Below, piece by piece: positions 10,188 to 62,837 of a stretch of 64,000 nucleotides of DNA. The position numbers and the translations under genes were made by a program. A model generated the notes under the pieces. That model was not told where the DNA came from. It worked only from the letters and a program-made list of their open reading frames with translations, and made no database searches. The stretch is taken from NCBI GenBank assembly GCA_045601345.1, contig JAZRZL010000075.1:11040-75039 (forward strand), read 5' to 3'. Within the stretch, counting starts at the first letter, position 1. Each line of letters opens with the position of its first letter. The stretch is from Faecousia sp. GTDB taxonomy: Bacteria; Bacillota; Clostridia; Oscillospirales; Oscillospiraceae.

Positions 10188-10454
10188 CTGTGGTAATTGA
10201 ATGTGTTAAGAAAATATGGACATCGGGTACGTTATGTCAACTGCGCACAACAGGGCAGTGGGCGGTTTTCCATGGCAGTAAATTAACAAGCCCTTGGTAG
10301 GCGGCGGATGAGGTTGGCTTCCTAAGATTGAGCGCTTCCTATGTTAGGAAGGTTTTCGGTTTTGGCAGTGCATCCAATGACCTCTTCCTTGGCTTCTACC
10401 GCCATTGGAGACGGTTCGTCTGTTCATAATTTGTTCACTCATTCAATTGCTGTG
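10188..10454 (+). mobile_element. MITE-like repeat copy R1 (outer TIR at both ends; the first core hairpin is deleted)
   Basis: Ends are GTAATTGAATGTGTTAAGAAAATATGGAC and the reverse complement GCAATTGAATGAGTGAACAAATTATGAAC. Flanked by TCGCATAAG (10179-10187) and TAGCATAAG (10455-10463). Confidence 0.75.
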
Positions 10455-10546
10455 TAGCATAAGTTTCATAAGTGCATTTTGCTGTTGAGACCATTCGGGA
10501 TTTAGGTGCAGCCGGCTGATTGCCGCGCCTCTTGTGTTTCTCTGCT

Positions 10547-10580
10547 AAAAAAGCCGCAGCCGGAATATACCGACTGCGGC
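10547..10580 (-). terminator. rho-independent terminator of the 2259-aa gene
   Basis: Minus strand: GCCGCAG..CTGCGGC stem followed by TTTTTT. Confidence 0.55.
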
Positions 10581-10614
10581 CTGATCGGGTTATATGATTT
10601 TACTATGAGAATGC

Positions 10615-13600
10615 TTACTTTGCAGCGCTCTGTGCCAAATCGGTATAGACGGTAACTGTCTCACCGGCGGCGTTCAGGCATTTAAGATAGCCAACAGCGT
10701 AGAGATCCTTCAAGGCCGTGCCGGCGCTCAGGTTCAGATTCAGGGTATAGCTGCCGGTGGTGCGGACTGCGGCTACGGTGTTGCTTCTGATATTGCTGCC
10801 ATCCACATTTTCCAGCGCCAAGCTTTCAGAACGGGTCGGGTCATAGGTTCTCACAAAACCGGCCTCCACGGGCTGATAGCCGCGTGAAAGCTCCCAGCGG
10901 ACAATCAGCTTGAGCTGCTGGCCGCCGCCGGCAAGGTCAATTCTGTCCGTAATCTCCAGAGACACCAGCGGCATAAGCTGCACAGGCACTGCCTCATAAT
11001 GTGCGACGATTACTGTATTGCTCTTGAGATAGAACTTATAGGCTACAGAATCGCTGACCTTTTTTCCGTTGAGATACCAGCCGGAGAAGAACTTCCCCTG
11101 CTCTGGCTCTGCGGCCTGCACGGTAATAAGATCATTATAGCGATACTGGCCATCCTTTTTAAGGCCGCCAATGATCGAACCGTTGGTTATATTCAATGAA
11201 TAAACAGCTTGATCTACCTTCGTGGTAGAGAATTCTGTTTCACCGATTGTGACGCAGGCCGTGTAGGTCACATAGCCTTCCGGCACAGGCGAAGCGCTCA
11301 CCGTAGCGGGAAGAATCTGTTCCCCTTCATCGCAATCGGCACACCTGCAAATGGCCTCGGCATAATAACCGCCGTTGGTGAGCGTCCAATTCCAATAGGC
11401 AACGCCGGTATAGCGGTGCTCATGCACAGGAGTAAGCGTATAGGTAAAGTACACCACATCGCTATCCTGCTTTCCGTCCTCCGCAGCATAGGCTGTCAAG
11501 GTAACGGTCATAGGATTTGCGTCATCGTCCCAATCAATTTCAATAGGCTCAGTATAGACAGCCGCTTCGCCGCCATGCAGGGTGTAGGTAATTTTCGCAT
11601 TTTCAGCTGCGGACAGCACCAGCTTAACCGAATGCTTGTCTTGTACACGAACCGTCACCGTGTCACCGCTGTCCGCATCCATTGCAATGCCGTTGACAAT
11701 CAGGTTGGCAGTCGGCTGCATTGCCTGCGGGGTAGGCTGTACCCAGATGGAAGCAGCAACCGTAGTGACTGTATCAAGCGTATAGATATCGGAGGACAAA
11801 GTTCCCGTGGCCATAATATTATAGCCATTCAAGCTGGCGGTATATGCTTCCAGCGTCCAATCAATGACATCTACCTCATCCACCGTATTATCCGCCAGCT
11901 TCGCAGTGACCTTTGCAGGGAGTGCCTGAATGATCTCCTCCTCGGTACTGCCGTAGGGCATCGGCGCAACAGTGGGCATCATGACCTCTGTTACCGGGGT
12001 GGCCGCTGTAGTCGGAAAGGTAATCATCAGCTTCGTGACCAAATCTCCCTCTTTTTCTGCGGTGCAGACAGCAGGAATGACTGTGCCATCTTCGGTGATA
12101 ACCTTATACACCACATCTGATGCGAGAATAAAGCTGCCGGAGAGCGCCACGGTCTGCGGAACCTGCTGATCGACAATCATGCCGCCCTGCATATTCTCCC
12201 GGTCTATGGTCAGGGTAGCCGTATAGTCGGTATTGTAATACGCCGTGGTTTTTGAAGATGTCCCCGTGGGAGACCACGTAGCACGGATGCCATCGGTCAC
12301 TGCCCAGTTATTTTCAATCGTAGCGACACAGCTCACATATTCGGGCAGCTTTTCGCCTCCGGCAGGAGCCGTGCTAAACACAATCGCCAGATTATGGATC
12401 ACCGGCTTGTAGCTTAGTGTCAGATCAATATCGCCGTCCGGCATGGTAAAGAACAGGATACCGTCTTCAATAGAAATATCCTCTATCGCAATTCCCGCAG
12501 CATCCATCACTTCCATAAATTGCTCTGCCGTAACAGCAGGAATGGGAAGCGCTGCTTCCTCGTATGCCGCACAGCAATAGGTGATGGTAGAGGAACCGAC
12601 CGAGAAATTGGTAGCGGCAGAAGTGTTGCTGTCGATGGCATGGATGTTAATCTTATGTATCTGCGCGGGCTGATAGCCATCAATGTAGCAGCCTACCTGC
12701 ACCACAGCGCTGCCGTCGGCATGGACGATGCCGTTCAGGTCGTAATAAATGGGATGTATTTGAATTCCTATGCCATTGCGATTACTCACACGAGCATCTA
12801 TTTGGACATTGAGCGCAGAATCGAAAGGCACAAGTGCATCATTCTGCGGCTGGCCGATGTAGACAAGCTCCTTTGCCTCATCCACCGGCAGAGAAACGGT
12901 AGCAATTGCGATCTCGTTATTCTCACCCATTGTCCATGTAACAGGTACAGTTACCTGCTTATCGGTGTATACCTCCGCGCCCAGTGCCTTTACAGCAGTC
13001 AGTGTTGCTGTTTTTGGCAGAGTTTGGCTGCCTTCGACCTCATCAAGCGTCAGCTTTACGGCATTGCTCTTTTCAAAGTAATTTGCGCGGAGAATATACC
13101 GTGCATTGTCAGAAATGCACAGGGTATTGGAACGGGCATTCAGATCCAGCCCCACCAGTTTTGTCATATCCCCCGTAACGACTTCCCAATTCTTAAAGGT
13201 CATGGTCTCTACAGCAGGTGCTTCCAGCGTGAAGGGTTCATCTGTCTCATAGCTGATCACCTGTGTCAGAGTTCCGCCATTGCCATCAGGATAGATACAC
13301 AGTACGCGCTGATCCTCCGCCACTGTGATGCCGATCTCATGGGTTGCGCTGCGAATTCCATCGTGGATAGCATAAGTATGTAAGGTAAACGCTGCGCCCG
13401 CTTCGCTGAACAGCGAGATCGGGCCGCAGTAGGGATGCCAATCGGTATCCGAGACGTGATCGCCCAGCTTCTGATAGAAAATACCGGCACCGTTATCCGT
13501 ATCGTTGGGGACACGCAGGGTAAGCCTTGGATCAGAGCCGGAAACGAAAATACTTGCCTCGTTCTCTTCCCCGGTGTTCGGTGCTTCGACGGAAGATACC

Positions 13601-16600
13601 GTGGCACACGTGTCCATAACCACAAATCCGGTCTCATTCTGATAGTAGTCATCATAGCTTCGAATCCACGCCAAATCAATGGAAGGATTGTGGTTGGCAA
13701 GAATGCGGGAAATATTATAAACCAGTGTACCAAGAACATCGTTGCCCGTTTTTTTGTAATCATCTCTTACATAGTCTAAAAGCAGACAGCCTGCGACCTT
13801 GGAGTATTTTTTCAGCACGGCAATCTGTTCATCGGAGAAAATATCCTGAAGGAACACATAGCCCTTAGAGCGATCTGTCTGATACCGATCGGCAACCTCT
13901 TCGTCCTCCAGCTCTTTTTCCGTCGGTACACTGATGGCCGACCAAACGGTATCTATCAGCTCTTCCTCCGTTTTGGCAAAGAAGCTCATGCAAATATCGG
14001 TAATGGTGGCAACGCCAAGGCCAACCACAGCTCCCAAAATATTACCGAATCCGGGCACAAAGGAACCGGCTGCCGCACCGGTCGCAATAGCAGCTGCACA
14101 GACCTCAAGGCTGTCCTGCGCTTGGAGGTAATCAAAATAGTAATCCGTGGCATCAAAGCGATCCTCCAATGTGCTGAGAAGCTCCATCAGCCCATCACTC
14201 TGTTCGGATGTCATATTCAGCAGTACACCCGCGATGTTGGCGATTGCGGTCTCCGGGGTATCATCTCCCAAAGCGACCTGTGAGAAGCTCATGCGGTACA
14301 GCTTGTCAATTATGACAATCACCGTTTCTTCTTCATTGTTTTCGTTAACAACCACATCCTCATATCCGACGAAGTTCATGGATTTGTCCTGGAGATCTCC
14401 CAAAAAGTAGGGAATAAAGTCGGCTGTATTGCGTTTATCTGACGGAATACTGGTCATGAAGCTGCTGTCTTCATCAAGCATTTGCCAGCCATAGCTGCCA
14501 AAGAGCGTGTTGCCGAAATAGGAAATGGTTGCCGTATGGAAGTAGTCATTGAAAATGGTATCATGGCCGTCAATACACTTGAGCTGCTGGAGCATCTTCT
14601 GCTTCTGCGTATTGTAGTTGCCAGCACCCACCTTGAATGCGCTGTTATCGCGCCATGTCTTAAAGGTATGCTCCACGGCGCTTTTTGCGTCTTCCCCGAT
14701 CACATAATATTTGCCGGTGCTGCTCTTCGGCGCTGTCGCATTTGGTTCACCCGGGATATAGTGATCCACACCGTAGCGATGGAAGCCCATGGCAGAGGGT
14801 GCCACCTGCGGAACCAAATCGCCGTTGTTGATGATATTGTGAATGCAGAAATACTTCTCGGTATTTTCGCGGACAGTGCTCATACCGCCCTGCGGTGCCT
14901 CAAAGGTATAGATAAAGGAACGCTGACCCTCCGTATCGAAATGATCCACAATCCGTGCGCCGGTCAGGTTGCTGGTTGCACCGGCACGGGAGAAACCGGC
15001 TACCCAGAAAATGGTATTTTCATCATTGCCGTCAATGCCCCTGTCCTTCATGTAGTGGGTCAGTTCGCTAAAGACCGTATCTGCCGCAGAAGCAAAGCCC
15101 TTGGCCTCGCCTTCAAAGCCAACGGTCATGTTGCTTACCCATTCCTGCTCATAGTTGGAACCGCGCACACCGATGATGACCAGCTTCTTCTGCTCGTCAC
15201 CTAAGGAAATATCCTTGCTGCCGATGGCCACACCGATGGTGAATTTCCCGGGCTTCTGAATGTTGGAATCATTCAGGTAAATGTCACTTTCCTTCACACC
15301 AATATCGCTGAGGAACTGGCGAATATTGTTGGATTTGACTGGATAGAAGGTTCCGTTTCCGTCGCTGTTATAAAGCACGGCATCCTTGCTGCCATCGTTG
15401 GAGTAGAAGGCCGAGATTGCCAGATGCATGGAGGCCGTTGACAGATGGGTGTCATAGTTTTTCGGGTCACGGTCAAAATAGCCATCAGAGTAGAAGAAGG
15501 TACTGGTGATGTCCTTCGTGGCATCATCCAGCGCGGGGAACTCCGCCACACCCTGATAGAGGGGATAGCTGCGTCCATTCTCGCTGATGTAGGGGTCTGC
15601 CAGCTTTCTCGTGCGGCTGTTGGTGTTCGTGATATCATTGTTCGGTACCAGGACGGTGGTAGGGATGGCCGGGTACTTCCGAGCGATATAATTCGCACTG
15701 TTTTCCCCTTTGACCAGCTTCAGAATTTGATCCGTGTATGCCACATGATAGCCGTTATCATCGGAATAGAACATCCGCTCATCGTATTCACCTGCGACCT
15801 TGGTAATGTCTGTTGCAGCACCGCTCATCCAGAGCCAAACCTCCGAGCCTTTGGTGAGGGAGGGGTAGAGGCGGGCATACATGGTGTTATAATAACCCAG
15901 ATAAAGATCATCCTTCGACTTTTCATCGGAGCTATTGTTCTTGATGATGCACTTGCCGCTCAGCGCCATATTTACAGTACCCAGCACATACACACCGCCG
16001 CCGGACCAGCCATCGGTATAGCTGTAGTTTCCTGTAACTGTCACATCGCGCAGCTCGCAGCCGTCGTTGTCTACAAACACGCCGCCACCCTCACTGCGGG
16101 ACCAGTTCTTCCAGATATTGCAGTTGGCTAGTGTGATATGCTCCATATTCAGGAGAATGCCCGCACCTCTGCCGCACCAGGTAGCATTCAGGCCAAAGCC
16201 CAGCGCAAGGTTCTTGATGAGGTTCAGACCGCTGACGCTTACCTTGTCATCATCTACATAGATACCGCCGCCACCGCCGTCAAAGTCACTGTTGGTGACA
16301 ATGTTATAGGCCAAGGTACTGGTTTTACCGGCTGTGCTGATGTGCTTGGAGCTGCTGTTTTCCGTGCGGCTCCAGAACGGATTGTGGTCTCCGTTCATAT
16401 TGGCATAAGGATTTGCGGTATAGGTCATGATTTCCCAGTTCGCGGGGTATTCGGGGTCATTTGGCTCCAGACACTGGGCATCACCGGCAATGACTGCGCC
16501 TTCACCGTCAATGGCAATACCGCCGCCATTATCATAGCCCAGATTGTAGTCCACATGGCTGCGCGTCATATAGACCTTGCAGTAATCGCCGCCGATGTAA

Positions 16601-17394: not shown

Positions 17395-17566
17395 GAATGG
17401 TTCTACCTTCTTTCTTAAATTTCATCCTTGCCCCGGGGAAATCCATGGTCTCATAGTGTCATTATATCATTTTTTTAAGCGTTGGCAATAAAATCCTGCG
17501 GATTGCAGAACAAAATTTTGATGAAATTAATTAAATTTCTTTTCCTTTCAAGATTGTGCCGAACAG

Positions 17567-17704
17567 CACGGTAATTGAATGCCCTGCCAAAACAGAAAAT
17601 CTTCCTAACATAGAAAGCGCTCCGTCTTAGAAAGCCAACCTCATCCGCCGCCTGCGGGCGGCACCGGCAAGGGCGGTTAACTTAACGCCATTGAAAACCG
17701 TCCC
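17567..17704 (-). repeat. repeat copy R2 (15-nt outer-TIR stub, core H, inner TIR)
   Basis: CACGGTAATTGAATG, then ...CTTCCTAACATAGAAAGCG...ACCTCATCCGCCGCCTGCGGGCGGCAC...TTAACTTAACGCCATTGAAAACCGTCCCC. Confidence 0.75.
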
Positions 17705-17808
17705 CTCCATAAAAAGGGAATCTTGGGTAGACTTCCAATCCAATATAGATTATACTTGTCATTAGTGATTCCCATTATATTACCCGGAATTAAAGGAGGA
17801 ACATCCAT

Positions 17809-30664: not shown

Positions 30665-30677
30665 GGCGGAATCGCGG

Positions 30678-35836: not shown

Positions 35837-35856
35837 GATATTCCCAAAATAGGGCT

Positions 35857-38658: not shown

Positions 38659-38671
38659 TAACTGCAACACA

Positions 38672-38949: not shown

Positions 38950-39005
38950 TTTGTCACATTGTACGACATAATTATTTTGCAAGTTTCTTCTTTATTCACC
39001 AAAAT

Positions 39006-44012: not shown

Positions 44013-44264
44013 TTATTCCTGTTTCAGTCTTTTTTCAAGCGTTGCAGGGGAAAATTGACTGAAATATATACGATTCATACCAAATTCCGAGGTCAGGAGG
44101 AAGGATTTCGGCAGCTCCTGCGTAGTTTCAGCAGTCTCCCCGCGCTCCTCCGCCCCTCTGAGAAATTTTCTTGTACGGGCAGACCAAGTGGTGTTGTCCA
44201 AATCGAAAATACCGATAATGCTTGAATCCCGCACCGCCATATCGCCGCCGATAGGTAAATACAT
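44013..44264 (-). CDS. DUF370 protein (RemB-like)
   Basis: 83 aa with an IIGIFDLD motif. Occupies the conserved Firmicutes slot between recF and gyrB. Confidence 0.7.
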   Translation of the reverse strand: MYLPIGGDMAVRDSSIIGIFDLDNTTWSARTRKFLRGAEERGETAETTQELPKSFLLTSEFGMNRIYFSQFSPATLEKRLKQE

Positions 44265-44282
44265 CGTGTCTTCTCCTTACAA

Positions 44283-44595
44283 GACAGAGGACTGTTCTCA
44301 ATGGCAGTAAGTTAACAGCCCCTGCCTTCCCCTCTGGGGAAGGTGCCGCCCGTAGGCGGCGGATGAGGTTTCATTCCTGAAACTGCGTGCTTTCTATGTT
44401 AGGAAGGTTTTCCGTTTTATCTGCGCGTCCATACCTCATCAGTCTCGCTTCGCTCGCCAGCTTCCCCAGAGGGGAAGCCTTTGACCTCATCAGTCTCGCT
44501 TCGCTCGACAGCTTCCCCAAAGGGGAAGCCTTAGCGCGGGCTATGTTAGGAAGTTTTCCACAGCCACCAACTTAACGCCATTAAAAACTGTCTTC
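44283..44595 (+). repeat. repeat copy R6 (inner TIR at both ends; module D duplicated in tandem, 2 x 51 bp at 44433-44534)
   Basis: GACAGAGGACTGTTCTCAATGGCAGTAAGTTAACAGCCCC ... CAACTTAACGCCATTAAAAACTGTCTTC. The right end overlaps the recF stop and its last codons. Confidence 0.8.
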
Positions 44596-47072: not shown

Positions 47073-47110
47073 ACCCAAACCTCTCTTTCCTCCTCCCTAA
47101 AGGGAGGGAG

Positions 47111-47301
47111 GATAAATAAAAAGTAACAGTAGTAGTAATAACTTATGTGGACAAATCGGAAAAACCGTTGCAGTATAAGAAAAATTGCAAAATCGGGATG
47201 TGGAAAAGCACATGGAGTTTCCACAGGGCAAAATGCAGCAGCTTTATCCATAAAAAGTTTTAACAAATATCTTTCAACTTTCCACAGCCCCATGTGGAAT
47301 A
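47111..47301. other. oriC candidate: AT-rich unwinding region, TAG/TAA trio run and six DnaA-box-like 9-mers
   Basis: AT-rich stretch at 47111-47145 containing TAGTAGTAATAA (47130-47141). Boxes: TGTGGACAA 47146, TGTGGAAAA 47199, GTTTCCACA 47217, TTATCCATA 47244, CTTTCCACA 47278, TGTGGAATA 47293 (1-2 mismatches to TTATCCACA). Confidence 0.6.
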
Positions 47302-47310
47302 CCAAGACAA

Positions 47311-47472
47311 GGGGCGGTTTTCTATTTTATCTGCGCGTCCATACCTCATCCGTCTCGCTTCGCTCGACAGCTTCCCCGGAGGGGAAGCCTTAGCCCCTGC
47401 CTTCCCCTCTGGGGAAGGTGCCGCCCGTAGGCGGCGGATGAGGTTGGCCTCCTAAGACAGAGTGCTTCCTAA
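47311..47472 (+). repeat. repeat copy R7 (permuted: module D precedes core H; no TIRs)
   Basis: ...ATACCTCATCCGTCTCGCTTCGCTCGACAGCTTCCCCGGAGGGGAAGCCTTAGCCCCTGCCTTCCCCTCTGGGGAAGGTGCCGCCCGTAGGCGGCGGATGAGGTTGGCCTCCTAAGA. Confidence 0.75.
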
Positions 47473-47488
47473 TGGGCTTTTTCAAAGC

Positions 47489-48802
47489 TCAGAGGCGGTT
47501 ATTGATATTGGAGGTGATATCTTGCAAGGTATTCTTCATGCCAGACTTTGGATCAGAGAGTAGAGCTTCGACCTTACGAATGCTGTGAATAACGGTAGCG
47601 TGGTCTCGACCGAATTCCTTTCCGATGTCCGGCAGGCTGCATTGGGTCAGATTACGGATCAGATACATGGCAATCTGCCGTGCCTCCGCAGTTCCTTTAT
47701 TTCGCAGAGAACCGCGAAGAATATGTTCCTCAATGTTGAAATAGCGGCTGACTTCGGAAATAATGAGCGCCGCCGTGGGCAAAGAGGAGGCACCTTCTTT
47801 GTACATATCCTTAATGGCGCGTGATACGCTGGCCACATCCAGTTCCATATTGTCGAGTGTGTGGTAGGCCATGACCTTTTTGACCGTGCCTTCGATCTGG
47901 CGGATGTTGGTGGTAATATTTTCAGCGATGTAGGAACAGACCTCGTCGGAAATTCCGATGCCAAGGCTCATGGCCTTATTTTTAATAATGGCCATACGGG
48001 TTTCATAATCTGGCGGCTGAATATCGGCAATCAGACCCCATTCAAAGCGGGTTTTCAGACGATCCTCCAGCTTCAGCATGGCAGAGGGCGGCTGGTCAGA
48101 GGTGAGGACGATCTGCTTGTGATTTTCATACAGGGCGTTAAAGGTATTAAAGAATTCCTCCTGCGTGGAATCCTTGCCGGCAATAAAATGAATATCGTCC
48201 ATGAGGAAGAGATCAGCCTGACGGAATTTATTACGGAATTCCATATTTTTTCCCTCGCGGAGCGCTTCAATCATTTCATTGGTAAATTGATCGCCGCGGA
48301 TATAGACAATGTTGAAATCGGGGTGTTTCTCGTGAATTGCAGCGGCAATGGCATAGAGCAAATGGGTTTTTCCAAGGCCGGATTGGCCATAGATGAAAAG
48401 CGGATTATATGCGTCGGCGGGCATTTTGGCAACAGCTAGGGCAGCGCCGTGGGCAAAGCGGTTGGAAGAGCCGACAACAAAGCTTTTGAAGGTGAATTGG
48501 GGATTTTTTATGAGAAAATCAGGATGGTTACTCGTCTGCTTACGCAGGTTCACCTCTTCCTCACCGAGAAGCTCAATTTCCACCTGCATATCAAAAAGAA
48601 GCTGCATTGCATCCTGAAGGAGGGGCACCCAGCGGCGGCTGATGGTTTCGCGCCGGAACGCGGAGGGGGATAGAATGGTTAGACACTGTTCGGTAAGCGA
48701 AATTACCTCGGTATCATCGAACCAGGTTGCAACAACGGTGGAGGAGAGCTGCTGTTCAAGATAGCTGAGAACCTTCGCCCAGACATAGGCGGTTGAATAC
48801 AT
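47489..48802 (-). CDS. dnaA: chromosomal replication initiator DnaA
   Basis: Start trimmed to the ATG at 48802 (MYSTAYVWAKV...) after AAGGAG. AAA+ GQSGLGKTHLL and the C-terminal DNA-binding region DHATVIHSIRKV. Confidence 0.95.
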   Translation of the reverse strand: MYSTAYVWAKVLSYLEQQLSSTVVATWFDDTEVISLTEQCLTILSPSAFRRETISRRWVPLLQDAMQLLFDMQVEIELLGEEEVNLRKQTSNHPDFLIKNPQFTFKSFVVGSSNRFAHGAALAVAKMPADAYNPLFIYGQSGLGKTHLLYAIAAAIHEKHPDFNIVYIRGDQFTNEMIEALREGKNMEFRNKFRQADLFLMDDIHFIAGKDSTQEEFFNTFNALYENHKQIVLTSDQPPSAMLKLEDRLKTRFEWGLIADIQPPDYETRMAIIKNKAMSLGIGISDEVCSYIAENITTNIRQIEGTVKKVMAYHTLDNMELDVASVSRAIKDMYKEGASSLPTAALIISEVSRYFNIEEHILRGSLRNKGTAEARQIAMYLIRNLTQCSLPDIGKEFGRDHATVIHSIRKVEALLSDPKSGMKNTLQDITSNINNRL

Positions 48803-48861
48803 AAAATTCTCCTTTCCGCACATCGTAAGGGGCAATTTTGCTATAAAATAACTCACTATAT

Positions 48862-48890
48862 ATTCTAACATAAACAGAGAAAAAGAACAA
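48862..48890 (-). promoter_or_regulatory. candidate dnaA promoter
   Basis: Minus strand: TTGTTC, 17 nt, TAGAAT. Confidence 0.35.
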
Positions 48891-53298: not shown

Positions 53299-53317
53299 GA
53301 ATTAATGCATCTCGGGT

Positions 53318-53643
53318 CATGCGAGTTGAGCGAGTTAAGAAAATGTGAGCATTGGGATAGAGAACGTTGTGTCAATTTTTGTACAACAGGACAGTGCGCG
53401 GTTCTCAATGGCAGTAAGTTAACAGCCCTGCCTTCCCCTCTGGGGAAGGTGCCGCCCGCAGGCGGCGGATGAGGTTTGCTTCCTGAAACTGAGTGCTTTC
53501 TATGTTAGAAAGATTTTCGGTTTTGGCAGTACGTCCAATGACCTCATCCGTCTCGCTTCGCTCGCCAGTTTCCCCAAAGGGGAAGCCTTGGCGCGGGCTA
53601 TGTTGGGAAGGTTTCCGCAGCTAACGCCATTGAAAACCGTTCC
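53318..53643 (+). repeat. repeat copy R8 (degenerate outer TIR, core H, module D, inner TIR)
   Basis: CATGCGAGTTGAGCGAGTTAAGAAAATGTGAGCATTGGG ... GCTAACGCCATTGAAAACCGTTCC. Confidence 0.8.
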
Positions 53644-53675
53644 TTGTCTTGCAGCGAAATTTGGAAAGAGAATGG

Positions 53676-53704
53676 TTGCGAAATTACCTAAAATGCAGTA
53701 TACT
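53676..53704 (+). promoter_or_regulatory. candidate promoter of the aminotransferase gene (upstream of R9)
   Basis: TTGCGA, 17 nt, TATACT. Confidence 0.45.
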
Positions 53705-53722
53705 AATAAAAAATAAGGAATA

Positions 53723-53966
53723 GGACAGAGAAAACCATTCCCAATTGCAGTAAGTTAACAGCCCTTGCCTTCCCCTCTGGGGAAGATGCCGCCCGCAGGC
53801 GGCGGATGAGGTTGGCCTTCTAAGATGGAGTGCTTTCTATGTTAGGGAGATTTTCTGTTTTAGCAGTGCATCCAATGACCTCTTCCGTCTTGCTTCGCTC
53901 GACAGCTTCCCCAGAGGGGAAGGCAAGGGCTGTTGACCTACTACCATTGAGAACGGTTCTCTGTCC
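53723..53966 (+). repeat. repeat copy R9 (inner TIR at both ends; arms form a long palindrome)
   Basis: GGACAGAGAAAACCATTCCCAATTGCAGTAAGTTAACAGCCCTTGCCTTCCCC ... GGGGAAGGCAAGGGCTGTTGACCTACTACCATTGAGAACGGTTCTCTGTCC. Confidence 0.8.
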
Positions 53967-53983
53967 CTCTGGGAGGAACAAAA

Positions 53984-55168
53984 ATGCTGAATGAAAAAAT
54001 GTATGCGTTGGGTGCGGTACGCTCCGGGATTCGGGAGCTGTTTGAGTATGGCCTAAAGCAGGCGGCGATTGTGGGCAAGGAGAATGTATTTGATTATTCT
54101 CTGGGCAACCCCTCCATTCCCGCGCCGGAGCTGGTCAATGAATCTATTAAGGATATTGTAGATACGGAGGATACCCTCCTTGTCCATGGCTATACCTCCG
54201 CGCCCGGTTATGACGGGGTGCGTCAGGCGGTGGCGGACAATCTCAATGCGCGGTTTGACGCTGGTGTACGGCCACAGAATTTGTTTTTCACCTGCGGCGC
54301 TGCCCCGGGTCTGGTATCCGTGCTCAAGGCGCTGATTGTGGACAGCCATTCCGAGATCATTGCCATTGCGCCCTTTTTCCCCGAATACCGCCCCTTCACC
54401 GAGGCCAACGGCGGGAAATTTACCGTAGTGCCGCCCGATATGGCGCATTTCCAGATCCATTTTGACGCATTGGCGGATGCCATTGGCGCAAATACGCAGG
54501 GCATCATTGTCAATTCGCCCAACAACCCCTCCGGTGTTGTGTATACTCGGGAAACCTTGGAGAAGCTTGCCGTCCTCCTGCGCGAAAAACAGGCACAATT
54601 CGGTCATCCCATTTATCTGATTGCCGATGAGCCTTACCGCGAGCTGGTTTACGGCGGTATGGAAGCGCCCTTCATCCCCTGTATTTATGAAAACACCATC
54701 GTGTGCTATTCCTGGTCAAAGTCCCTGAGCCTACCCGGGGAACGCATTGGCTATGTCTACGTCCCGGATGCCGCTGCCGACAGCGAAGCGGTATTCGCGG
54801 CAGTTGCCGGTGCGGCCAGAGCCTGCGGCCATGTGTGCCCGCCCTCTCTGCTCCAGAGAGTGGTTGCCCGCTGTGTGGATCGGATGCCCGATTTGGAGGC
54901 CTATGATGCCAATCGTACCCTGCTCTATACCGAGCTGAGCGCTATGGGCTATACCATGGCCAAGCCGGACGGCGCATTTTATCTCTTCATCAAGGCACCC
55001 GGCGGCGATTCCGATGCTTTCTCCGAAAGGGCAAAGAAGAAAAATCTCCTTCTCGTCCCTGGTACCAGCTTCGGCTGCAAGTCGTATTTCCGTATTTGCT
55101 ACTGCGTCTCCAATGACATGATCCGCCGCAGTCTTCCCGTCTTCCGCGAGCTGATGGAGGAAGCATAA
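53984..55168 (+). CDS. PLP-dependent aminotransferase (class I/II, aspartate/aromatic-type)
   Basis: 394 aa. YSWSKSLSLPGERIGY contains the PLP-lysine motif. NPSNPSG-like block NSPNNPSGVV. Confidence 0.85.
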   Translation: MLNEKMYALGAVRSGIRELFEYGLKQAAIVGKENVFDYSLGNPSIPAPELVNESIKDIVDTEDTLLVHGYTSAPGYDGVRQAVADNLNARFDAGVRPQNLFFTCGAAPGLVSVLKALIVDSHSEIIAIAPFFPEYRPFTEANGGKFTVVPPDMAHFQIHFDALADAIGANTQGIIVNSPNNPSGVVYTRETLEKLAVLLREKQAQFGHPIYLIADEPYRELVYGGMEAPFIPCIYENTIVCYSWSKSLSLPGERIGYVYVPDAAADSEAVFAAVAGAARACGHVCPPSLLQRVVARCVDRMPDLEAYDANRTLLYTELSAMGYTMAKPDGAFYLFIKAPGGDSDAFSERAKKKNLLLVPGTSFGCKSYFRICYCVSNDMIRRSLPVFRELMEEA

Positions 55169-55483: not shown

Positions 55484-58400
55484 ATGAAGAAGCCTGTTGT
55501 ACGCGCATTGTCTATCCTTTTGATTTTTACTGTACTCCTATCTACACTGGCGGCATCGGCATTTGCGTTTTCTGTGAATCTTAAAGAGCTGGCACAGAAG
55601 GAGGATGAAAATCTCGGTGGAAATTACGAAGTGCAGGATGTCATTTCTCTGATTGAGCCGAGATATCACACCATTCGGATTCCTGTAGCTGATATGACGT
55701 TGGAGGAGCTTCGTCAGTATGACGTTGATGATATCACCCTGCGTCTGGATCGGGATTCGGAGCGCCCCTATCTTGACACGACCCTCTATCCCAGCCAGAA
55801 TGCGGGCGGCGATATGAGGGATGCCTCCATCTGGCTAACGCAGCTTGATGATGATGTACCCTTTTTCACGGACTTTTCTGTTACTGCGGACGAAGAAAAT
55901 GGCACAGCGATTTTGCTGGTGACCTTTTTCTCAAACTTTTATTTTTATGATCCAAGCGACCTCTCTGTACCCAATTCTATTGGCGGCTCGTATCTGAATC
56001 TCTGCGGCTGGTTCCGGCTCACGGCTCAATTGGGAGACAGCATCCTCGGCAGCGCCGACCTCAAGATAACCCCCTATGAGAGCTTCCATACGATGAGCGA
56101 AATCTACACCGATATTGATAATATTGTCGAGCTTGCCACGCAAAATGGCCTCTATGCTGTGCGCGAATCCATGGGTACTTCCTCGGCCGGACGCGATATG
56201 CCCTACATAATTATTTCCGACAGTGCGCGCAGCGTTTCCGACTGGCTGGCCTTTACCGAGGAAGCGGAAAACCGTCCTACCCAGACGCTTGCCGATCTGG
56301 AGGCCGGAGTTTATGACAATCTTCGCGTCCCCGTGCTCTATTCCAATATCCATGCCTCAGAGGTAGCCGCTGCGGACGGCATTATGAAGTTTGCCGAGCT
56401 GCTGGCACAAACCGGCATGGATGGTACCCTCTCCTATAATATGCTTACCGACTTCACCGAGGCCGGACGCACAGAGCTTCAAAAGGAATGGAACGATCCG
56501 ACGGTTTGCGCAAATATTACAGGCTACGCAGGTGTCACAGGCTATGGCATTGCAGTACCCGATTTGGTGAAAGACACCGCCACCTATCTTGGCTTCCTCC
56601 GCAACGGCAACGAACAATCCGGCAGGGTGCCCCTGGACACCTTCTATGAGCAAGAGACGAAGACCGTTTCCATGCGCGAGCTTTTGGGCGGTGTGTTCTT
56701 TATTCTGGTTCCCGAGGAGAGCGTGGACGGACGTGTCTATATGGCTCGTACCTCAGCCAATGGCTATGACCTCAACCGCGACAACACCTTCCAGACCACG
56801 CCCGAAACGGCCAATATGAACCGTATGATCGGCACCTATAACCCGGTCTGCTTTACGGAATACCATGGCCGCAAGACCAATTTCCAATGTGAGCCATGCT
56901 CCCCGCCCCACGAGCCGAATTTTGAGTATGACCTGCTTGCAGAGCACTTGGTTGCCGCCGGTGAAGCTTTGGGCATTGGCGCGGTAGCCAATAATCCTTC
57001 GTATCACAGCTATGCCATGCCCCAGCGCGACTTCCTCTTCTATACGGATAAGGCAAAAACCAAAACCAAATGGGTTTACCCTTGGGACGATATGTCCACC
57101 AGCTATACCCCGCAGTTTTCCATGCTCCATGGCTGCGTGGCCTACACCGTCGAGCTGCCTGCCTATAACGATGATGTTGTCACCGCTGTCTGCTATGGCA
57201 GTCTCAGTCAGGCCGATTATGTCAAAGAGGAGAAGCTGGGTTTTCTCATGGATCAGGTCAAAATCTATGAGCGCGGCGTGAAGAATGCGAACTCTGATGC
57301 CTATGAACTGGTCGGCCAGTGGTTCTGCAATCAGAGCGATGTAGAGGGCGCGGAAATGCACATCATGCGCCCGGAATATACCGGCGAGGGAGAAAACGGC
57401 AATTTCTATCCCGAATGCTACCTGATTCCTTTGGACAGGGAGAACCAGTGCAATTTACAGGCTGCCCGGGATACGATGATCTGGATGAGCCGCAACGATG
57501 TCAAGGTCAATCTCACCACCGCGCCAATTGCATATGACGGCATTACCTACCCTGCCGGAACGCTGGTTATTCCCATGTATCAGGCCAAGCGCTCTGTTGC
57601 CAACAGCGCCTTGTATGGTGGTACGCTGCTCCAGTCCTGGCCAATCGTCTATTCTGAAAATGTTACCGCCTTCCATAAAATCTATGGCTTCGATATGGCA
57701 ACGGTCACGAAGCCGGCGGCATATGAACAGATTATGCAGCTTGCAGGCGAGTGTATGGATTATGACGAGGTTTTATCCTATGCGGACTCCATCACCTCTT
57801 CGTTCCGCGGCGAAGCGGGCAGGGATGTTATTATCCGCAATGATTCTTCGGATGCCGCTGCCGCAGTCAATGCGCTGCTGCAAGAGGGCAGAAAGGTCGG
57901 CATGATTGTCGATGGCGAGCGAAAGGGCGATTTTATCTGCTCCTATGCGGATTATCTCACCGTTGCTGACCGCTATCTCCTGCTTGCCACGGGGGTCGCT
58001 GCCAGAAGTGAAGGCATTCATGCCCAGTGCATCAAAACCAATCCCACGGTCTATATCACCGGCGTTCCCGATGATAACCCTTATAGCTGTATCACCTTAT
58101 TCCAGCTATACAATACCAACTGGAATTATGATCGGGTTGCCATGGAGAATATGAATTTCAATATGACAGAAATTCTTTCCGAGGCGGATGTCATTGCAGG
58201 CTCCAGCGAACTCACCAAGGCAGAAAGTGCCGCAATCCTAAATGGCACCCCCTATATTGGCTATGGCTCTACCATCTATTATAACAATGGCTTTAAGGCG
58301 ATTAACAGCGCCATAGGCGGCGCAACCCGTACAGCGCTGCCCGGTGCGATGGACTGCCTGTGCTATGTGACCTATCCATCCAATACGCTGGTCAATGCCA

Positions 58401-59422
58401 GCTATATCGCGGGCGGGGATGATATGCTCTATGGCTATGCCTACGAAGACGGCTACTACGGCTACTTCAGCAAGATCCCAGCCGGTGCGGTGCCGCTGGT
58501 CGCTGTCGATGGCTCCCGTACCCCCATACAGGGCTTTATTCCCACAAGCAGCGCCTACCGAACCTTCCTGAATGGCGGGATTCTCGGCTACAGCTTTGAT
58601 AATGCGAAGCTCCATCTTGCCATCTTTGCCAACACCCTGACCTATAAGGCACACCAGAAGGACGAATATACCTACATCAGCAATTTCATTTTCTCCTCTC
58701 TTCTGACCGATGAGGCATATGTCGGCACCTGCGCCCACCAATTGGAGACGGAACGCATCCCCGCTACCTGTCTGGAGGGCGGCTACAGCGTCTATACCTG
58801 CACCATCTGCGGCTATGAATATACCGCAGATGAGACCCCGGCACTGGGACACAGCTATGTCGATGGTGTGTGCATCCGCTGCGCAGAGCCGGAGCCTGTA
58901 AGGCTGCTTCTTGGCGCAGCAACCGGCAAAGCGGGGGATACGGTCACAGTTTCCCTCTCTGTCAAAAATAATCCGGGTCTTGCGTCCTTCCAGCCGATCC
59001 CGCTGTATGATGCCGATCAGCTTGAACTGATTGAGATGGTATATCTATCGGAAACCGCTGTCCAAAACGGTGTCATTGCCAACCTGCGCTTCCGAATAAA
59101 GGAAGACTGCATATTGGGTGCAATAGCCGTTTCGCTGGAGGAAATGCCGGACGTTGCCATTTCCGATGGCCAAATCCATGTGGTGGATTATATTCCCGGT
59201 GATTTGGATAGCGACAACGAGATTACTGTCCGCGATCTGGCGCTTCTGCGCCGCTATCTTGCCAATGGCACCGCATTCCCCGCAAATCAGGATGCCGCCG
59301 ATCTGGACGGAATCCCAGGCATCAATGAGGAGGATGTGGCATATCTGCGCCGCTTCCTTGCCTATTGGGAGGGCTATGTACCAAGCTATAAGTTAGCGGC
59401 TGCGGAAACCTTCCCAACATAG
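55484..59422 (+). CDS. secreted M14-family zinc carboxypeptidase-like protein with Cys-rich repeat, cohesin-like and dockerin modules
   Basis: Signal peptide present. YSNIHASEVAAADG is an HxxE zinc motif. C-terminal cohesin-like GKAGDTVTVSLSVKNNPGLASF and a dockerin duplicate DLDSDNEITVRDLALL / DLDGIPGINEEDVAYL. The last ~10 codons lie in repeat R10. Confidence 0.7.
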   Translation: MKKPVVRALSILLIFTVLLSTLAASAFAFSVNLKELAQKEDENLGGNYEVQDVISLIEPRYHTIRIPVADMTLEELRQYDVDDITLRLDRDSERPYLDTTLYPSQNAGGDMRDASIWLTQLDDDVPFFTDFSVTADEENGTAILLVTFFSNFYFYDPSDLSVPNSIGGSYLNLCGWFRLTAQLGDSILGSADLKITPYESFHTMSEIYTDIDNIVELATQNGLYAVRESMGTSSAGRDMPYIIISDSARSVSDWLAFTEEAENRPTQTLADLEAGVYDNLRVPVLYSNIHASEVAAADGIMKFAELLAQTGMDGTLSYNMLTDFTEAGRTELQKEWNDPTVCANITGYAGVTGYGIAVPDLVKDTATYLGFLRNGNEQSGRVPLDTFYEQETKTVSMRELLGGVFFILVPEESVDGRVYMARTSANGYDLNRDNTFQTTPETANMNRMIGTYNPVCFTEYHGRKTNFQCEPCSPPHEPNFEYDLLAEHLVAAGEALGIGAVANNPSYHSYAMPQRDFLFYTDKAKTKTKWVYPWDDMSTSYTPQFSMLHGCVAYTVELPAYNDDVVTAVCYGSLSQADYVKEEKLGFLMDQVKIYERGVKNANSDAYELVGQWFCNQSDVEGAEMHIMRPEYTGEGENGNFYPECYLIPLDRENQCNLQAARDTMIWMSRNDVKVNLTTAPIAYDGITYPAGTLVIPMYQAKRSVANSALYGGTLLQSWPIVYSENVTAFHKIYGFDMATVTKPAAYEQIMQLAGECMDYDEVLSYADSITSSFRGEAGRDVIIRNDSSDAAAAVNALLQEGRKVGMIVDGERKGDFICSYADYLTVADRYLLLATGVAARSEGIHAQCIKTNPTVYITGVPDDNPYSCITLFQLYNTNWNYDRVAMENMNFNMTEILSEADVIAGSSELTKAESAAILNGTPYIGYGSTIYYNNGFKAINSAIGGATRTALPGAMDCLCYVTYPSNTLVNASYIAGGDDMLYGYAYEDGYYGYFSKIPAGAVPLVAVDGSRTPIQGFIPTSSAYRTFLNGGILGYSFDNAKLHLAIFANTLTYKAHQKDEYTYISNFIFSSLLTDEAYVGTCAHQLETERIPATCLEGGYSVYTCTICGYEYTADETPALGHSYVDGVCIRCAEPEPVRLLLGAATGKAGDTVTVSLSVKNNPGLASFQPIPLYDADQLELIEMVYLSETAVQNGVIANLRFRIKEDCILGAIAVSLEEMPDVAISDGQIHVVDYIPGDLDSDNEITVRDLALLRRYLANGTAFPANQDAADLDGIPGINEEDVAYLRRFLAYWEGYVPSYKLAAAETFPT

Positions 59423-60019
59423 CCCGCGCCAAGGCTTCCCCTCTGGGGAAGCTGTCGAGCGAAGCGAGACTGAAGAGGTCATTGGAAGCACTACTAAAAC
59501 CGAAAATTTTCCCAATATAGGAAGCACTCTGTATGAGGAGTGAAACCTCATCCGCCGCCTGCGGGCGGCACCTTCCCCAGAGGGGAAGGCAAGGGCTAAG
59601 GCTTCCCCTCTGGGGAAGCTGTCGAGCGAAGCGAGACTGAAGAGGTCATTGGAAGCACTACTAAAACCGAAAATTTTCCCAATATAGGAAGCACTCTGTC
59701 TTAGGAGGCCAACCTCATCCGCCGCCTGCGGGCGGCACCTTCCCCAGAGGGGAAGGCAAGGGGCTAAGGCTTCCCCTTTGGGGAAGCTGTCGAGCGAAGC
59801 GAGACGGAAGAGGTCATTGGAAGCACTACTAAAACCGAAAACCTTCCTAACATAGAAAGCACGCAGTTTCAGGAGTGAAACCTCATCCGCCGCCTGCGGG
59901 CGGCACCTTCCCCAGAGGGGAAGGCAGGGGCTGTTAATTTACTGCCATGGAAAATCGCCCACTGTCCTGTTGTTGTCTATCCCAATGTTCACATTTTCTT
60001 AACTCGTTCAATTACCGTG
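59389..60019 (-). repeat. repeat copy R10 (inner-TIR remnant, three tandem D+H units of 167/168/167 bp at 59431-59932, outer TIR)
   Basis: Unit boundaries at 59431, 59598 and 59766, each starting AAGGCTTCCCCT(C/T)TGGGGAAGCTGTCGAGCGAAGCGAGAC. Ends CCCAATGTTCACATTTTCTTAACTCGTTCAATTACCGTG. Confidence 0.85.
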
Positions 60020-60029
60020 GTTTTGGCGG

Positions 60030-62187: not shown

Positions 62188-62190
62188 CCG

Positions 62191-62412
62191 CTATAATAAA
62201 GAATCATCCAATAGAGCTTCCATAGGCACATCTAAGATACGCGAAATTGTAAGAAGCTCAATATCCGATACGATTCGAATTTGCCCCTCCAGCTTTGAAA
62301 GGCTTGAAGGGTTGATATCTACCCCGAGAAGCTGCATTTGAGCAACCAGTTCGCGTTGCTTCATATGACGTTCTTTACGGAGCGCCTCAATTTTTGCACC
62401 GCAGATATTCAT
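62191..62412 (-). CDS. XRE-family HTH transcriptional regulator
   Basis: IEALRKERHMKQRELVAQM...SLSKLEGQ helix-turn-helix pattern. Start at the ATG at 62412 (an alternative upstream ATG is at 62442). Confidence 0.7.
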   Translation of the reverse strand: MNICGAKIEALRKERHMKQRELVAQMQLLGVDINPSSLSKLEGQIRIVSDIELLTISRILDVPMEALLDDSLL

Positions 62413-62490
62413 GCGTCCATAGGGATAACGCCGTGGTTTCATAGTATCACCGCAAATAATTCTTTTACAGAATTATATTTCAAAAAGTAA

Positions 62491-62519
62491 TTGACTTAAT
62501 TCCAAAATAGAATTATAAT
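62491..62519 (+). promoter_or_regulatory. near-consensus promoter directed at the 62873 SLH gene
   Basis: TTGACT, 17 nt, TATAAT. It would give a leader of about 350 nt containing R11. Confidence 0.5.
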
Positions 62520-62705
62520 CTAAAAAAGATTGCAGGAAGGGGACAAGGAGACGGCGCAAAACCGCCAATATTGTGTCTCCGCTGCAAAAACTCCTGATTT
62601 TTGGAACAAATGGAGTTTATTATCGTCAAACAGGTAGCCAATAAATTTGAGGGAAGGACTGGTTACAATGAACACGAAAGCCTTTTGAAAGCGATTTGCA
62701 AGAGT

Positions 62706-62837
62706 GGGACGGTTTTCAATGGCGTTAAGTTAGCAACTGTGAAAACTTTCGTTTTGATAACATTGTTCCACAGGGGTCAAGGCTTCCCCAGAAGGGAAGG
62801 CAAGGGCTGTTAACTTACTGCCATTGAGATTCCTTGT
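62706..62837 (-). repeat. repeat copy R11 (minimal form: two inner TIRs around a short spacer)
   Basis: GGGACGGTTTTCAATGGCGTTAAGTTAGCAACTGTG...GGCAAGGGCTGTTAACTTACTGCCATTGAGATTCC. Confidence 0.8.

Follow-up and report, generated by a model that had tools for sequence, protein, structure and literature searches.

To our knowledge, the interspersed repeat families of gut Clostridia have barely been described, and nearly all of REP and REPIN biology comes from Proteobacteria; metagenome-assembled genomes (MAGs) of gut Clostridia fragment largely at such repeats. BOX elements of Streptococcus pneumoniae, an intergenic repeat of Firmicutes, follow a boxA-boxB(n)-boxC plan with a boxB of about 45 nt, and their ends are complementary, so that the whole element folds as a long hairpin; we know of no cognate transposase. 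The Correia (Neisseria) and RUP MITEs duplicate TA, while PATEs, derived from IS200/IS605, carry subterminal hairpins without terminal inverted repeats (TIRs) or target-site duplications, lie 3' of a fixed short target and have TnpA/TnpB relatives in the genome. REPs, their BIME and REPIN assemblies and the RAYT (TnpA-REP) transposases have been described in E. coli and Pseudomonas (PMC3116915, PMC6006769), a REP being defined as a hairpin (basal stem of 7-20 bp, loop of 2-5 nt) that has GT[AG]G on its 5' side at a distance of 0-2 nt (PMC6006769). Group 1 RAYTs are found in Clostridia (PMC5581495), and TnpA-Y1 classes 2.6 and 3 go with atypical REPs that lack GT[AG]G (PMC6006769).

In the window (the whole 64,000-nt stretch of Faecousia sp. 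DNA analysed here) a dense family of hairpin repeats beside oriC can be seen in one contiguous piece, with roughly one copy per 5 kb. The original prediction of 11 copies amounting to about 3.0 kb (4.7% of the window) and occupying most long intergenic regions agrees well with our figures, as R1-R11 sum to 3081 nt (4.8%) and copies lie in 10 of the roughly 15 intergenic gaps of at least 200 nt between 10 and 63 kb, counted from the gap list and the gene map. The sequence blocks it quoted are present far above chance, with 16 matches to CCTTCCCCTCTGGGGAAGG at ≤2 mismatches, four to the inner repeat and three to the outer repeat in the window against 0 expected in each case, and a repeat search of the window recovered families with 4 to 8 copies at the places it had given. 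This search, together with unit and arm alignments, confirmed dispersed, modular inverted repeats that are nested and occur in both orientations. Relative to their neighbouring genes the copies also point either way, and they occupy 5', 3', convergent and divergent gaps. Only short ORFs were present inside the copies.

The copies are better explained as one long foldback element or its derivatives than as a mosaic of independent modules. The element is laid out as an outer TIR, a linker, an inner inverted repeat, (H-D)n and the mirror-image arms, with TIRs of 30-45 nt and element sizes of 140-630 bp across the family. The outer TIR (about 40 nt) starts CCACGGTAATTGAA; the inner inverted repeat (about 45 nt) starts (ACA)GGACAG and includes a small hairpin and CAATGG, and inner-only arms share the end point (A/G)GACAG in 9/9 cases of the arm alignment. 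A double hairpin of 45 nt, the functional core of the element, consists of hp1 (CCTTCCCC-loop-GGGGAAGG), a T, hp2 (a variable stem with a loop that is usually CGCA or GAA) and (G/T)GATGAGGT; hp1 has a G on its 5' side and, before that, variable bases (YNWG). This module has 21 matches in the window, all intergenic. D had been described as a module in its own right, but its reverse complement is the same unit type as the hp1-hp2-GGATGAGGT block at the start of H; D is therefore the inverted partner of that block, and H-D is an inverted doublet of 167 nt. H-type and D-type modules are opposed in every H-D unit, and since the two inverted double hairpins flank a core of about 85 nt, the unit is a REPIN-like doublet. 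The proposed modular mosaic thus stands as far as modular nested inverted repeats are concerned, but not in the independence of its modules. Copies carry 0, 1 or 3 H-D units, with the breakpoints of unit-number change in the near-identical palindromes hp1 and hpD, and their variants are better explained by deletion or duplication at palindromic hairpins plus truncation; replication slippage or recombination at these palindromes may underlie the gain and loss of units and the deletion of hp1 from R1 and R2. The copies are as follows:

R1, 10188-10456, + strand: two outer TIRs enclosing the linker, an inner arm, an H core that has lost hairpin 1 and the 5' half of hairpin 2, and a short inner arm.
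R2, 17566-17706, - strand: 15-nt outer end, truncated H core, hairpin 2 (hairpin 1 deleted), inner arm; in a divergent promoter region; covariance-model (CM) match at 17637-17671.
R3, 30425-30670, - strand: two outer TIRs enclosing a reverse-oriented H unit and an inner arm; between a Fur-family gene and a flippase gene.
R4, 35545-35836, + strand: of the long forms the most complete, with two outer TIRs enclosing the linker, an inner arm, hp1-hp2-GGATGAGGT, the core and a short inner arm; upstream of tRNA-Val.
R5, 38665-38975, + strand: two inner arms enclosing an H-D unit and a tail, with decayed linker remnants on both sides; between convergent glgP and rnhA.
R6, 44287-44606, + strand: inner arm, H, D, second D (51-nt duplication), tail, inner arm; between recF and a remA-like gene, with the recF stop codon inside it.
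R7, 47302-47475, + strand: inner-arm end, 3' core part, D, hp1-hp2-GGATGAGGT, 5' core part, so that two tandem units meet here and the copy is truncated at either end; immediately 3' of the dnaA stop codon and adjoining a DnaA-box cluster; CM matches at 47342-47392 (-) and 47396-47445 (+).
R8, 53318-53650, + strand: a degenerate outer TIR and the linker, followed by two inner arms that enclose H-D and a tail made of part of a second core.
R9, 53729-53966, + strand: symmetric inner-arm element, GGACAGAG...H-D...CTCTGTCC, ending 18 nt upstream of an aminotransferase start codon.
R10, 59392-60020, - strand: truncated inner arm, tail, three tandem D-H units of 167 nt (59428-59594, 59595-59761, 59763-59929; 91-96% identical), inner arm, short linker, outer TIR; includes the last 11 codons and the stop of a 1312-aa dockerin-domain gene.
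R11, 62703-62842, - strand: two inner arms enclosing a tail and a single hybrid hairpin (GGCTTCCCCAGAAGGGAAGGC) (n=0); R5-like minus exactly the H-D unit between two near-identical palindromes (hp1, hpD); weak CM match at 62759-62804.

Some assignments differ from the earlier ones. R2 had been read as outer-H-D-inner, but D is absent and hairpin 1 is lost; R10, given the same plan, has these modules as a triple D-H tandem (59428-59929) and not as a single unit, and the outer repeats and H of R1, R3 and R4 are accompanied by inner-repeat arms that had been overlooked. The predicted foldback of R9 as RNA reaches -129.5 and -132.1 kcal/mol on the two strands (z=-11.1 and -12.2), and that of R4 as single-stranded DNA has z=-4.7. 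An attempt to thread the hammerhead stems by hand onto the D-type module failed.

Two sites, those of R6 and R7, could be compared with relatives, which are other species (DnaN 84-90% identical). R6 is absent from the orthologous recF/remA-like junction of L013, where the genes are 20 nt apart, and R7 is absent after dnaA in L013, L014 and L015; in a further relative, L081, the dnaA-dnaN gap measures only 233 nt. R6 and R7 are insertions relative to the related genomes, loss in the relatives being formally possible for R6. Across 27 kb of L013-L015, the closest relatives, no copy turned up, and no common insertion target, conserved tetranucleotide or pentanucleotide could be defined from the two empty sites. 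Of the three copies that have an outer repeat at each end, two are flanked by target-site duplications, of 7 and 9 bp: R4 lies between direct copies of GATATTCCC (9 bp; 35536-35544 and 35837-35845; null P(≥9)=4e-4) and R1 between direct copies of GCATAAG (7 bp; 10181-10187 and 10457-10463; null P(≥7)=0.0045), the null probabilities being taken from 20,000 random flank pairs. R3 and the inner-only copies (R5, R6, R9 and R11) showed no detectable target duplication, so that one DDE mechanism does not account for all copies.

The double hairpin was also found on 12 contigs of at least seven other genomes from two Clostridia orders, belonging to Faecousia (Oscillospiraceae), Ca. Spyradocola (Christensenellales) and uncultured Clostridia MAGs. 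Between Oscillospiraceae-like and Christensenellales genomes it is 90-100% identical, with the junction T and the 3' tail GATGAGGT invariant in both orders. Outside the window there are single modules, tandem modules and inverted pairs with a spacing of about 130 nt, and the inner arms beside them resemble those of the window (GGTTGAATGG.. vs GGTTCTCAATGG..). In 53 covariance-model matches (48 distinct), aligned by fitting to the model with the loop of one seed sequence shortened by hand, 97.1% of the cells of the two hairpins are paired and both-sided changes occur in 11/14 pairs; 0/500 shuffles reach these values and slid controls are 45-75% paired. From this comparison of sequences we conclude that compensatory substitutions maintain the predicted double hairpin across genera. 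The core of about 85 nt is not conserved outside this genome and has 0 double-sided covariation, and its single-sided changes keep G-U pairs on the H-forward strand.

Searches for a known family agree with the earlier view that the repeat belongs to no named one. Rfam at the gathering threshold matched tRNA-Val alone in the window and gave nothing meaningful, hammerhead included, at E≤5 on three copies (53300-53990 and 44250-44620); a full-text literature search for the repeat sequence returned no paper, and the plasmid, phage and viral collections held no real match, so that within these resources no catalogued family was found. As had been stated, the window appears free of transposases: Pfam and NCBIfam scans of about 50 window ORFs revealed none, Y1 transposases included, and neither an IS200-like TnpA nor a RAYT was found in the window or the compared relative loci. 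An autonomous element with the same TIRs, which had been suggested as something to look for, did not appear, as the outer-repeat 21-mer met 64 loci in metagenome contigs, none beyond 22-29 nt (chance level), and the outer repeat had no match among plasmids. Canonical REP-like GT[AG]G sites number 0 on either strand of the window, while 21 kb of the relative L080 gave 31 raw matches (overlapping, so that the actual sites are fewer). These canonical GTAG-REPs occupy the very same intergenic sites, which indicates that REP systems exist in this lineage. The family is uncatalogued, although its general kind is known (MITE, REP-BIME or BOX-like; MITE/REPIN-like).

We read the family as mobile foldback repeats, non-coding and non-autonomous, which an enzyme with its gene elsewhere in the genome mobilises in trans (probability about 0.7). 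A local segmental duplication or gene-conversion artefact would fit the fact that all 11 copies come from one 52-kb stretch, the DNA examined, but it is largely refuted: the 10 occupied gaps have unrelated flanks, the H-D units are 81-96% identical (as expected for a family that spread over time) while the intervening genes are unique, two copies appear as clean insertions relative to relatives, and the similarity is not confined to this region, since a core module in at least seven genomes of two orders cannot be a local duplication. Very improbable, too, are functional structured RNAs (cis-regulatory, sRNA or self-cleaving ribozyme) that merely resemble a repeat family. The very stable predicted folds, the covarying hairpins and the G-U pairs kept by single-sided core changes on the H-forward strand would suit them, as would CTGATGAGGTC in D-type modules, superficially like the hammerhead CUGAUGA core; yet GGATGAG replaces CTGATGAG in H-type modules, Rfam gave no family at E≤5 on three copies, the core lacks conservation and double-sided covariation, copies take both orientations and every type of gap, and insertions fall at the recF and dnaA stop codons. 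Improbable as well are host-maintained chromosomal sites that are not currently mobile and are bound by a nucleoid, gyrase or termination factor, a role that has been proposed for the BIMEs of E. coli. The deep conservation of the module, with its T and tail invariant in two orders, the enrichment of copies around oriC and the filling of the same recF/remA/gyrB gaps by different families in the window and two relatives speak for such sites, whereas presence and absence vary among close relatives (no copy in 27 kb of L013-L015), target duplications are seen, and truncated and rearranged copies are common.

An alternative explanation that we consider doubtful, though possible, is a pure REP/REPIN system, in which the double hairpin is the REP and H-D the REPIN, spread via single-stranded DNA by a single-copy RAYT (Y1 HUH transposase) from elsewhere in the genome, and the outer and inner repeats are no more than additional REP-like hairpins in BIME-like clusters. 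The likeness is extensive: both are extragenic imperfect-palindrome modules of a few tens of nt, single, tandem or in inverted doublets, the doublet being the basic unit; both form mosaic clusters and tandem arrays with several hairpin subtypes per genome, lack coding capacity, persist vertically over long times across related taxa and depend on an enzyme encoded once elsewhere (for this family, presumably). Compensatory change that preserves hairpins beside an invariant tail, inner-only copies without target duplication, GTAG-REPs at the very same sites in L080, group 1 RAYTs in Clostridia (PMC5581495) and atypical REPs without GT[AG]G in TnpA-Y1 classes 2.6 and 3 (PMC6006769) all favour it. 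However, the defining 5' GT[AG]G guide tetranucleotide is missing at the hairpin foot (0 sites against 31 raw in L080), the module has two hairpins and ends 3' in a conserved tail, (G/T)GATGAGGT, the doublet is 167 nt long with a core of about 85 nt, extra TIR shells are present, no RAYT was found in the window or compared loci, and the 7-9-bp direct duplications at the long forms R1 and R4 are unexpected under peel-and-paste single-stranded DNA transposition.

Within the preferred reading of trans-mobilised foldback repeats, a DDE-type transposase making staggered cuts would have inserted the outer-repeat form, a step to which we give even odds. Rather unlikely is that the ancient double hairpin is recognised by a protein that works on single-stranded DNA with extruded hairpins, e.g. 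a RAYT/IS200-like HUH enzyme. Quite speculative is the broader proposal that the 45-nt hp1-T-hp2-(G/T)GATGAGGT represents an unrecognised, order-spanning REP-like class in Clostridia, served by an as yet unknown single-strand-specific enzyme (a non-canonical RAYT/HUH clade or another hairpin-recognising protein), with the 167-nt H-D doublet as the true replicating unit captured in TIR/TSD shells, i.e. a REPIN-MITE hybrid that two unrelated machineries could move.

Compared by description, the family shares with BOX an architecture of end module, variable tandem internal units and end module, but differs in host lineage, in a unit of 167 nt against the roughly 45 nt of boxB, in an internal unit that is an inverted doublet of a REP-like double hairpin, and in two nested inverted-repeat levels and 7-9-bp target duplications. 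With Correia and RUP elements it has in common a size of 140-630 bp, TIRs of 30-45 nt, target-site duplication and insertion near gene ends or starts, where stop codons or RNA hairpins may be created; its duplications are of 7-9 bp (GATATTCCC, GCATAAG) and not TA, neither metagenome contigs nor plasmids yielded a parent IS that shares its ends, and most copies lack both outer repeat and duplication. Terminal inverted repeats bounding a short non-coding element are likewise those of a DDE-type MITE, where a duplication of fixed length is the rule and here it is 9 bp at R4, 7 bp at R1 and none at R3, R5, R6, R9 and R11. Like PATEs, the copies have subterminal hairpins beside short conserved sequences and an inner form without duplication, and recognition of single-stranded DNA is plausible, but unlike PATEs they have true inverted-repeat ends, no conserved target definable from the two empty sites, and no TnpA or TnpB nearby.

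The effects on the host are side effects and not functions: the family gives stop codons to recF and the dockerin-domain gene, places hairpins of about -130 kcal/mol (R9 RNA fold) within the recF/remA-like/gyrB gene row and long RNA hairpins within operons, and has inserted beside oriC. The covarying, deeply conserved double hairpin is a concrete handle for finding the cognate enzyme, which would test the vertical persistence of REPIN-like replicators in Firmicutes, and the module model can be used for strain typing and for masking or annotating spurious 'hypothetical proteins'. In the window, L080 and L081 the same recF/remA/gyrB gaps hold different hairpin-repeat families.

The repeat blocks quoted in the original prediction cannot be a product of chance, as CCTTCCCCTCTGGGGAAGG matched the window 16 times with at most two mismatches, the inner repeat four times and the outer repeat three times, compared to zero matches for each in dinucleotide shuffles. 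An unbiased repeat search of the window returned the same sites, as families of 4-8 copies. The eleven copies (R1-R11) sum to 3081 nt (4.8% of the window) and were located as follows.

Copies of the repeat family in the window
10188-10456, R1
17566-17706, R2
30425-30670, R3
35545-35836, R4
38665-38975, R5
44287-44606, R6
47302-47475, R7
53318-53650, R8
53729-53966, R9
59392-60020, R10
62703-62842, R11

Overall, copies occupy 10 of roughly 15 intergenic gaps of at least 200 nt between 10 and 63 kb (counted from the gap list and the gene map), and the first 10 kb of the window contain none. They face every orientation relative to the adjacent genes, and their central H-D units, each made of two facing modules, are 81-96% identical to one another, as expected of a family that spread over time.

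The window is the part of a Clostridia chromosome surrounding the replication origin, with the cumulative GC skew minimum at 44-48 kb and the following genes.

Origin-region genes
47489-48871, minus strand, dnaA
45957-47078, minus strand, dnaN
44581-45699, minus strand, recF

An S4-like gene, a remA-like gene, gyrB and gyrA also lie on the minus strand, and the window further encodes Spo0A, SLH, cohesin and dockerin proteins, a Zn-uptake operon, glycosyltransferases, glgP and metG, together with phage terminase genes at 2.5-4.5 kb. The closest DnaN proteins share 90% and 84% identity with that of the window, and its GlgP shares 73% with Faecousia proteins, which makes the organism a relative of Oscillospiraceae. 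The dnaA-dnaN gap (47079-47488) contains a conserved cluster of DnaA-box-like TTTTCCACA/TGTGGAAA motifs that can be aligned with three related loci (L013, L014 and L015) and is therefore probably part of oriC; R7 sits between this cluster and the dnaA stop codon.

Alignment of the units and of the arms confirmed that the copies are modular with nested inverted repeats, but revealed a single design instead of the free mosaic initially proposed. The outer inverted repeat of approximately 40 nt, (C)CACGGTAATTGAAyGnGTTAAGAAAATrTGAACATTGGG, has the termini CCACGGTAATTGAA...TTCAATTACCGTGG and is separated by a linker of 13-32 nt from an inner inverted repeat of approximately 45 nt, which starts with (ACA)GGACAG (arms GGACAG...CTGTCC) and continues with a small hairpin (e.g. 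GAGAAC-C-GTTCTC or AGACG-AAC-CGTCT) followed by CAATGG. The H-D unit forms the centre of the element. H starts with CCTTCCCC-TCT-GGGGAAGG T GCCGCC-CGCA-GGCGGC GGATGAGGT, while the reverse complement of D reads GCTTCCCC-TCT-GGGGAAGC T GTCGAGC-GAA-GCGAGAC TGATGAGGT; these are the same kind of object, so that H-D comprises two inverted copies of a 45-nt double-hairpin module (in short hp1-hp2-GATGAGGT, hp1 and hp2 being its two hairpins), with a core of about 85 nt between the modules and 167 nt overall. The central stem is closed at its base by pairing of GGATGAGGT with ACCTCATCC. Each strand of a whole copy is predicted to fold into a very long hairpin (R9: -129.5 and -132.1 kcal/mol, z=-11.1 and -12.2 for the two strands; R4 folded as DNA: z=-4.7).

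The hairpin of D is a palindrome nearly identical to hp1, so that the two act as direct repeats at a spacing of 167 nt. R11 corresponds to an R5-like element minus exactly the segment from hp1 to the D hairpin, with one hybrid hairpin left, R1 and R2 lack hp1, the palindrome being cleanly excised, and R6 carries a duplication of D (51 nt). R10, correctly recognised as a copy but not as an array, consists of three tandem units with 91-96% identity, and R7, previously read as D-H in permuted order, spans the point where two tandem units meet and is truncated at either end. The changes in unit number would result from slippage or recombination at the palindromes. The assignment of module D to R2 was wrong; apart from this and the missed array in R10, the earlier description of the copies is correct.

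Evidence for insertion was obtained from L013, a syntenic contig of the related MAG GCA_965347285.1 (DnaN 84%), which has the gene order dnaA-dnaN-S4-recF-remA-gyrB-gyrA-rnhA and no copy of the family. Its recF/remA junction measures 20 nt, compared to the 320-nt R6 in the window, and the boundaries of R6 in this comparison coincide with the symmetric inner termini. The window recF extends by seven codons into R6 (44581-44606) and stops at the TAA of the inner arm, whereas L013 recF has its own TGA at the equivalent place. R7 is likewise absent directly after the dnaA stop codon in L013, L014 and L015 (DnaN 90%), and the DnaA-box region on the far side of its site aligns well with all three. 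Two of the three copies with outer repeats at both ends are flanked by direct repeats, namely R4 (GATATTCCC, 9 bp) and R1 (GCATAAG, 7 bp); in a null set of 20,000 random 14-mer pairs from the window, matches of 9 or more and of 7 or more had frequencies of 4e-4 and 4.5e-3, respectively. No flanking direct repeat was detected for R3 or the inner-only copies (R5, R6, R9 and R11), and the flanks of GlgP relatives at the R4/R5 sites were not syntenic with the window. R10 supplies the stop codon and final 11 codons (59392-59422) of a 1312-aa dockerin/cohesin-domain gene (55484-59422).

The 25-mer GCCGCCCGYAGGCGGCGGATGAGGT was found on 12 contigs of seven species-representative genomes, comprising three Faecousia/Oscillospiraceae MAGs, one Ca. 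Spyradocola (Christensenellales) MAG and uncultured Clostridia. Only the module of 45-50 nt is common to these genomes; the core, linker and outer repeat were specific to the window in the comparisons made. In Faecousia, the module occurs as inverted pairs approximately 130 nt apart, flanked by arms (GGTTGAATGGTAGGCAC...) resembling the inner arms of the window, and the Spyradocola copies are arranged as direct tandem arrays. A covariance model recovered 53 instances (48 distinct) in the 212 kb searched. In the alignment, which was fitted to this model and included one seed sequence with a loop shortened by hand, 97.1% of cells were paired and 11 of 14 pairs had changes in both partners (51 cells); the observed pairing and covariation values were not reached in any of 500 shuffles, and slid-partner controls gave 45-75% pairing. 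The hp2 stems include GCCGCC/GGCGGC, GGCC/GGCC, GGCGC/GCGCC, GCCGCG/CGCGGC, GTCGCC/GGCGAC and GTCGGC/GCCGAC, some forms with tandem G-A mismatches, while the T that joins the two hairpins never varies and the tail GGATGAGGT hardly does. This covariation in a model-fitted alignment indicates that the hairpins are selected as hairpins, and the bases flanking them look like a sequence-specific recognition site. A single diverged module at the recF/remA junction of L081, a related locus (12488-12545: a TTCCCTCC..GGAGGGAG hairpin, T, the 10-bp perfect palindrome GTCACCGGTG..CACCGGTGAC, then TGAGGGCGTC), suggests a wider superfamily of double hairpins.

Overall, the best-supported reading is that the repeat is a mobile foldback element which is non-autonomous and moved in trans. 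A strand-specific role as RNA is unlikely because no pair of the core had changed on both sides among the window copies and because these face every orientation. A hammerhead ribozyme, considered from CTGATGAGGTC, was rejected, with no Rfam match, GGATGAG in the H-type modules and failed hand-threading of the stems; when D-type modules with the hammerhead-like CTGATGAG were threaded by hand, the other features that a hammerhead needs were missing. Scanning two gaps that contain the repeat for promoters and terminators gave no consistent site within it. An outward-facing sigma-70-like match (TTGACA, 17 nt, CATATT) in the linker and outer repeat of R4 (35573-35601, minus strand) has no counterpart at the equivalent position of R8 and is thus probably not a family-wide feature. 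Similar to REP, BIME and REPIN sequences, the repeat forms hairpin doublets, mosaics and arrays, but it lacks the 5' GT[AG]G that defines canonical REPs (PMC6006769), and the window has 0 sites of that kind. With tandem units between two ends, it is organised like pneumococcal BOX, and it resembles classical MITEs in its terminal repeats and duplications; however, it has no TA duplication, and no parent IS was found in the searches made. By the tests available, it belongs to none of these groups and, just as the original prediction recognised no named family in it, none was matched in the searches made, with no Rfam match and no paper retrieved by a literature search on the double-hairpin sequence strings.

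As to mechanism, the duplications of 7-9 bp suggest that the outer-repeat form inserts at staggered cuts (DDE-type), while the deeply conserved, covarying double hairpin with its invariant tail points to recognition as extruded or single-stranded DNA, as in systems of the RAYT (REP-associated Y1 HUH transposase) or IS200 type. The latter route would suit the inner-only and H-D forms, which lack duplications. The double hairpin could also, though less probably, define a Clostridia-wide REP-like class with a putative cognate enzyme of its own, captured here in a TIR/TSD shell. In line with the earlier claim that no transposase is present, the approximately 50 window ORFs yielded no transposase, integrase or HUH protein, and searches of the window, of 27 kb from the closest relatives, of the twelve module-bearing loci and of metagenomes, plasmids and phages revealed no mobilising enzyme. 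The outer-repeat 21-mer, used to seek an autonomous IS in metagenomes, gave 64 loci, all chance matches; viral contigs scanned with the module and the inner arm gave no hits, and plasmid and phage BLAST of R9 and the R4 left arm returned only one 40-nt match, on an unannotated faecal phage contig. A protein-database search with a 54-aa spurious repeat ORF yielded no candidate, and tblastn with an approximate IS200 TnpA query had no match in the window and compared loci. A gene between two elements in L010 was dismissed as a transposase candidate, as its translation reads, by eye, as an ordinary DAHP-synthase-like gene.

Hairpin repeats of another kind were found in L080 (DnaN 77% identical), with 31 raw GT[AG]G-plus-hairpin hits in 21 kb, which are overlapping calls of fewer sites, mostly of the type GTAGGGGCGGCC-ATT-GGCCGCCC. 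This different, canonical REP family (GTAG plus GGGGCGGCC / GGGGACGG hairpins; 12492-13640, also 9567-10000, 18555 and 7185-7229) occupies the same dnaA-dnaN, recF-remA and remA-gyrB gaps as the window repeats, and a 314-nt block with 99% identity lies on both sides of the remA-like gene. With L081 carrying its diverged module at the recF-remA junction, these gaps evidently accept insertions from several families of hairpin repeats. Upstream of the GlgP homologue in a further locus (L086, 180-400), two occurrences of TCCCAGCTGAGCTAATGGCCCATATG, which seems to belong to a tRNA gene, are separated by approximately 130 nt containing a D-like GCCTCGCTTCGCTCGG motif; the arrangement may be an insertion scar. 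Near the end of the window, three direct repeats, one about every 180 nt (63586-63979), lie within a 260-aa ORF (63210-63992, minus strand) that has no family match and probably encodes a tandem-domain protein. At the other end, a phage-like block (170-4495) with small and large terminase subunits, a weak capsid/protease match and a G+C content of 57%, above the rest of the window, precedes Spo0A (4627-5412, plus strand).
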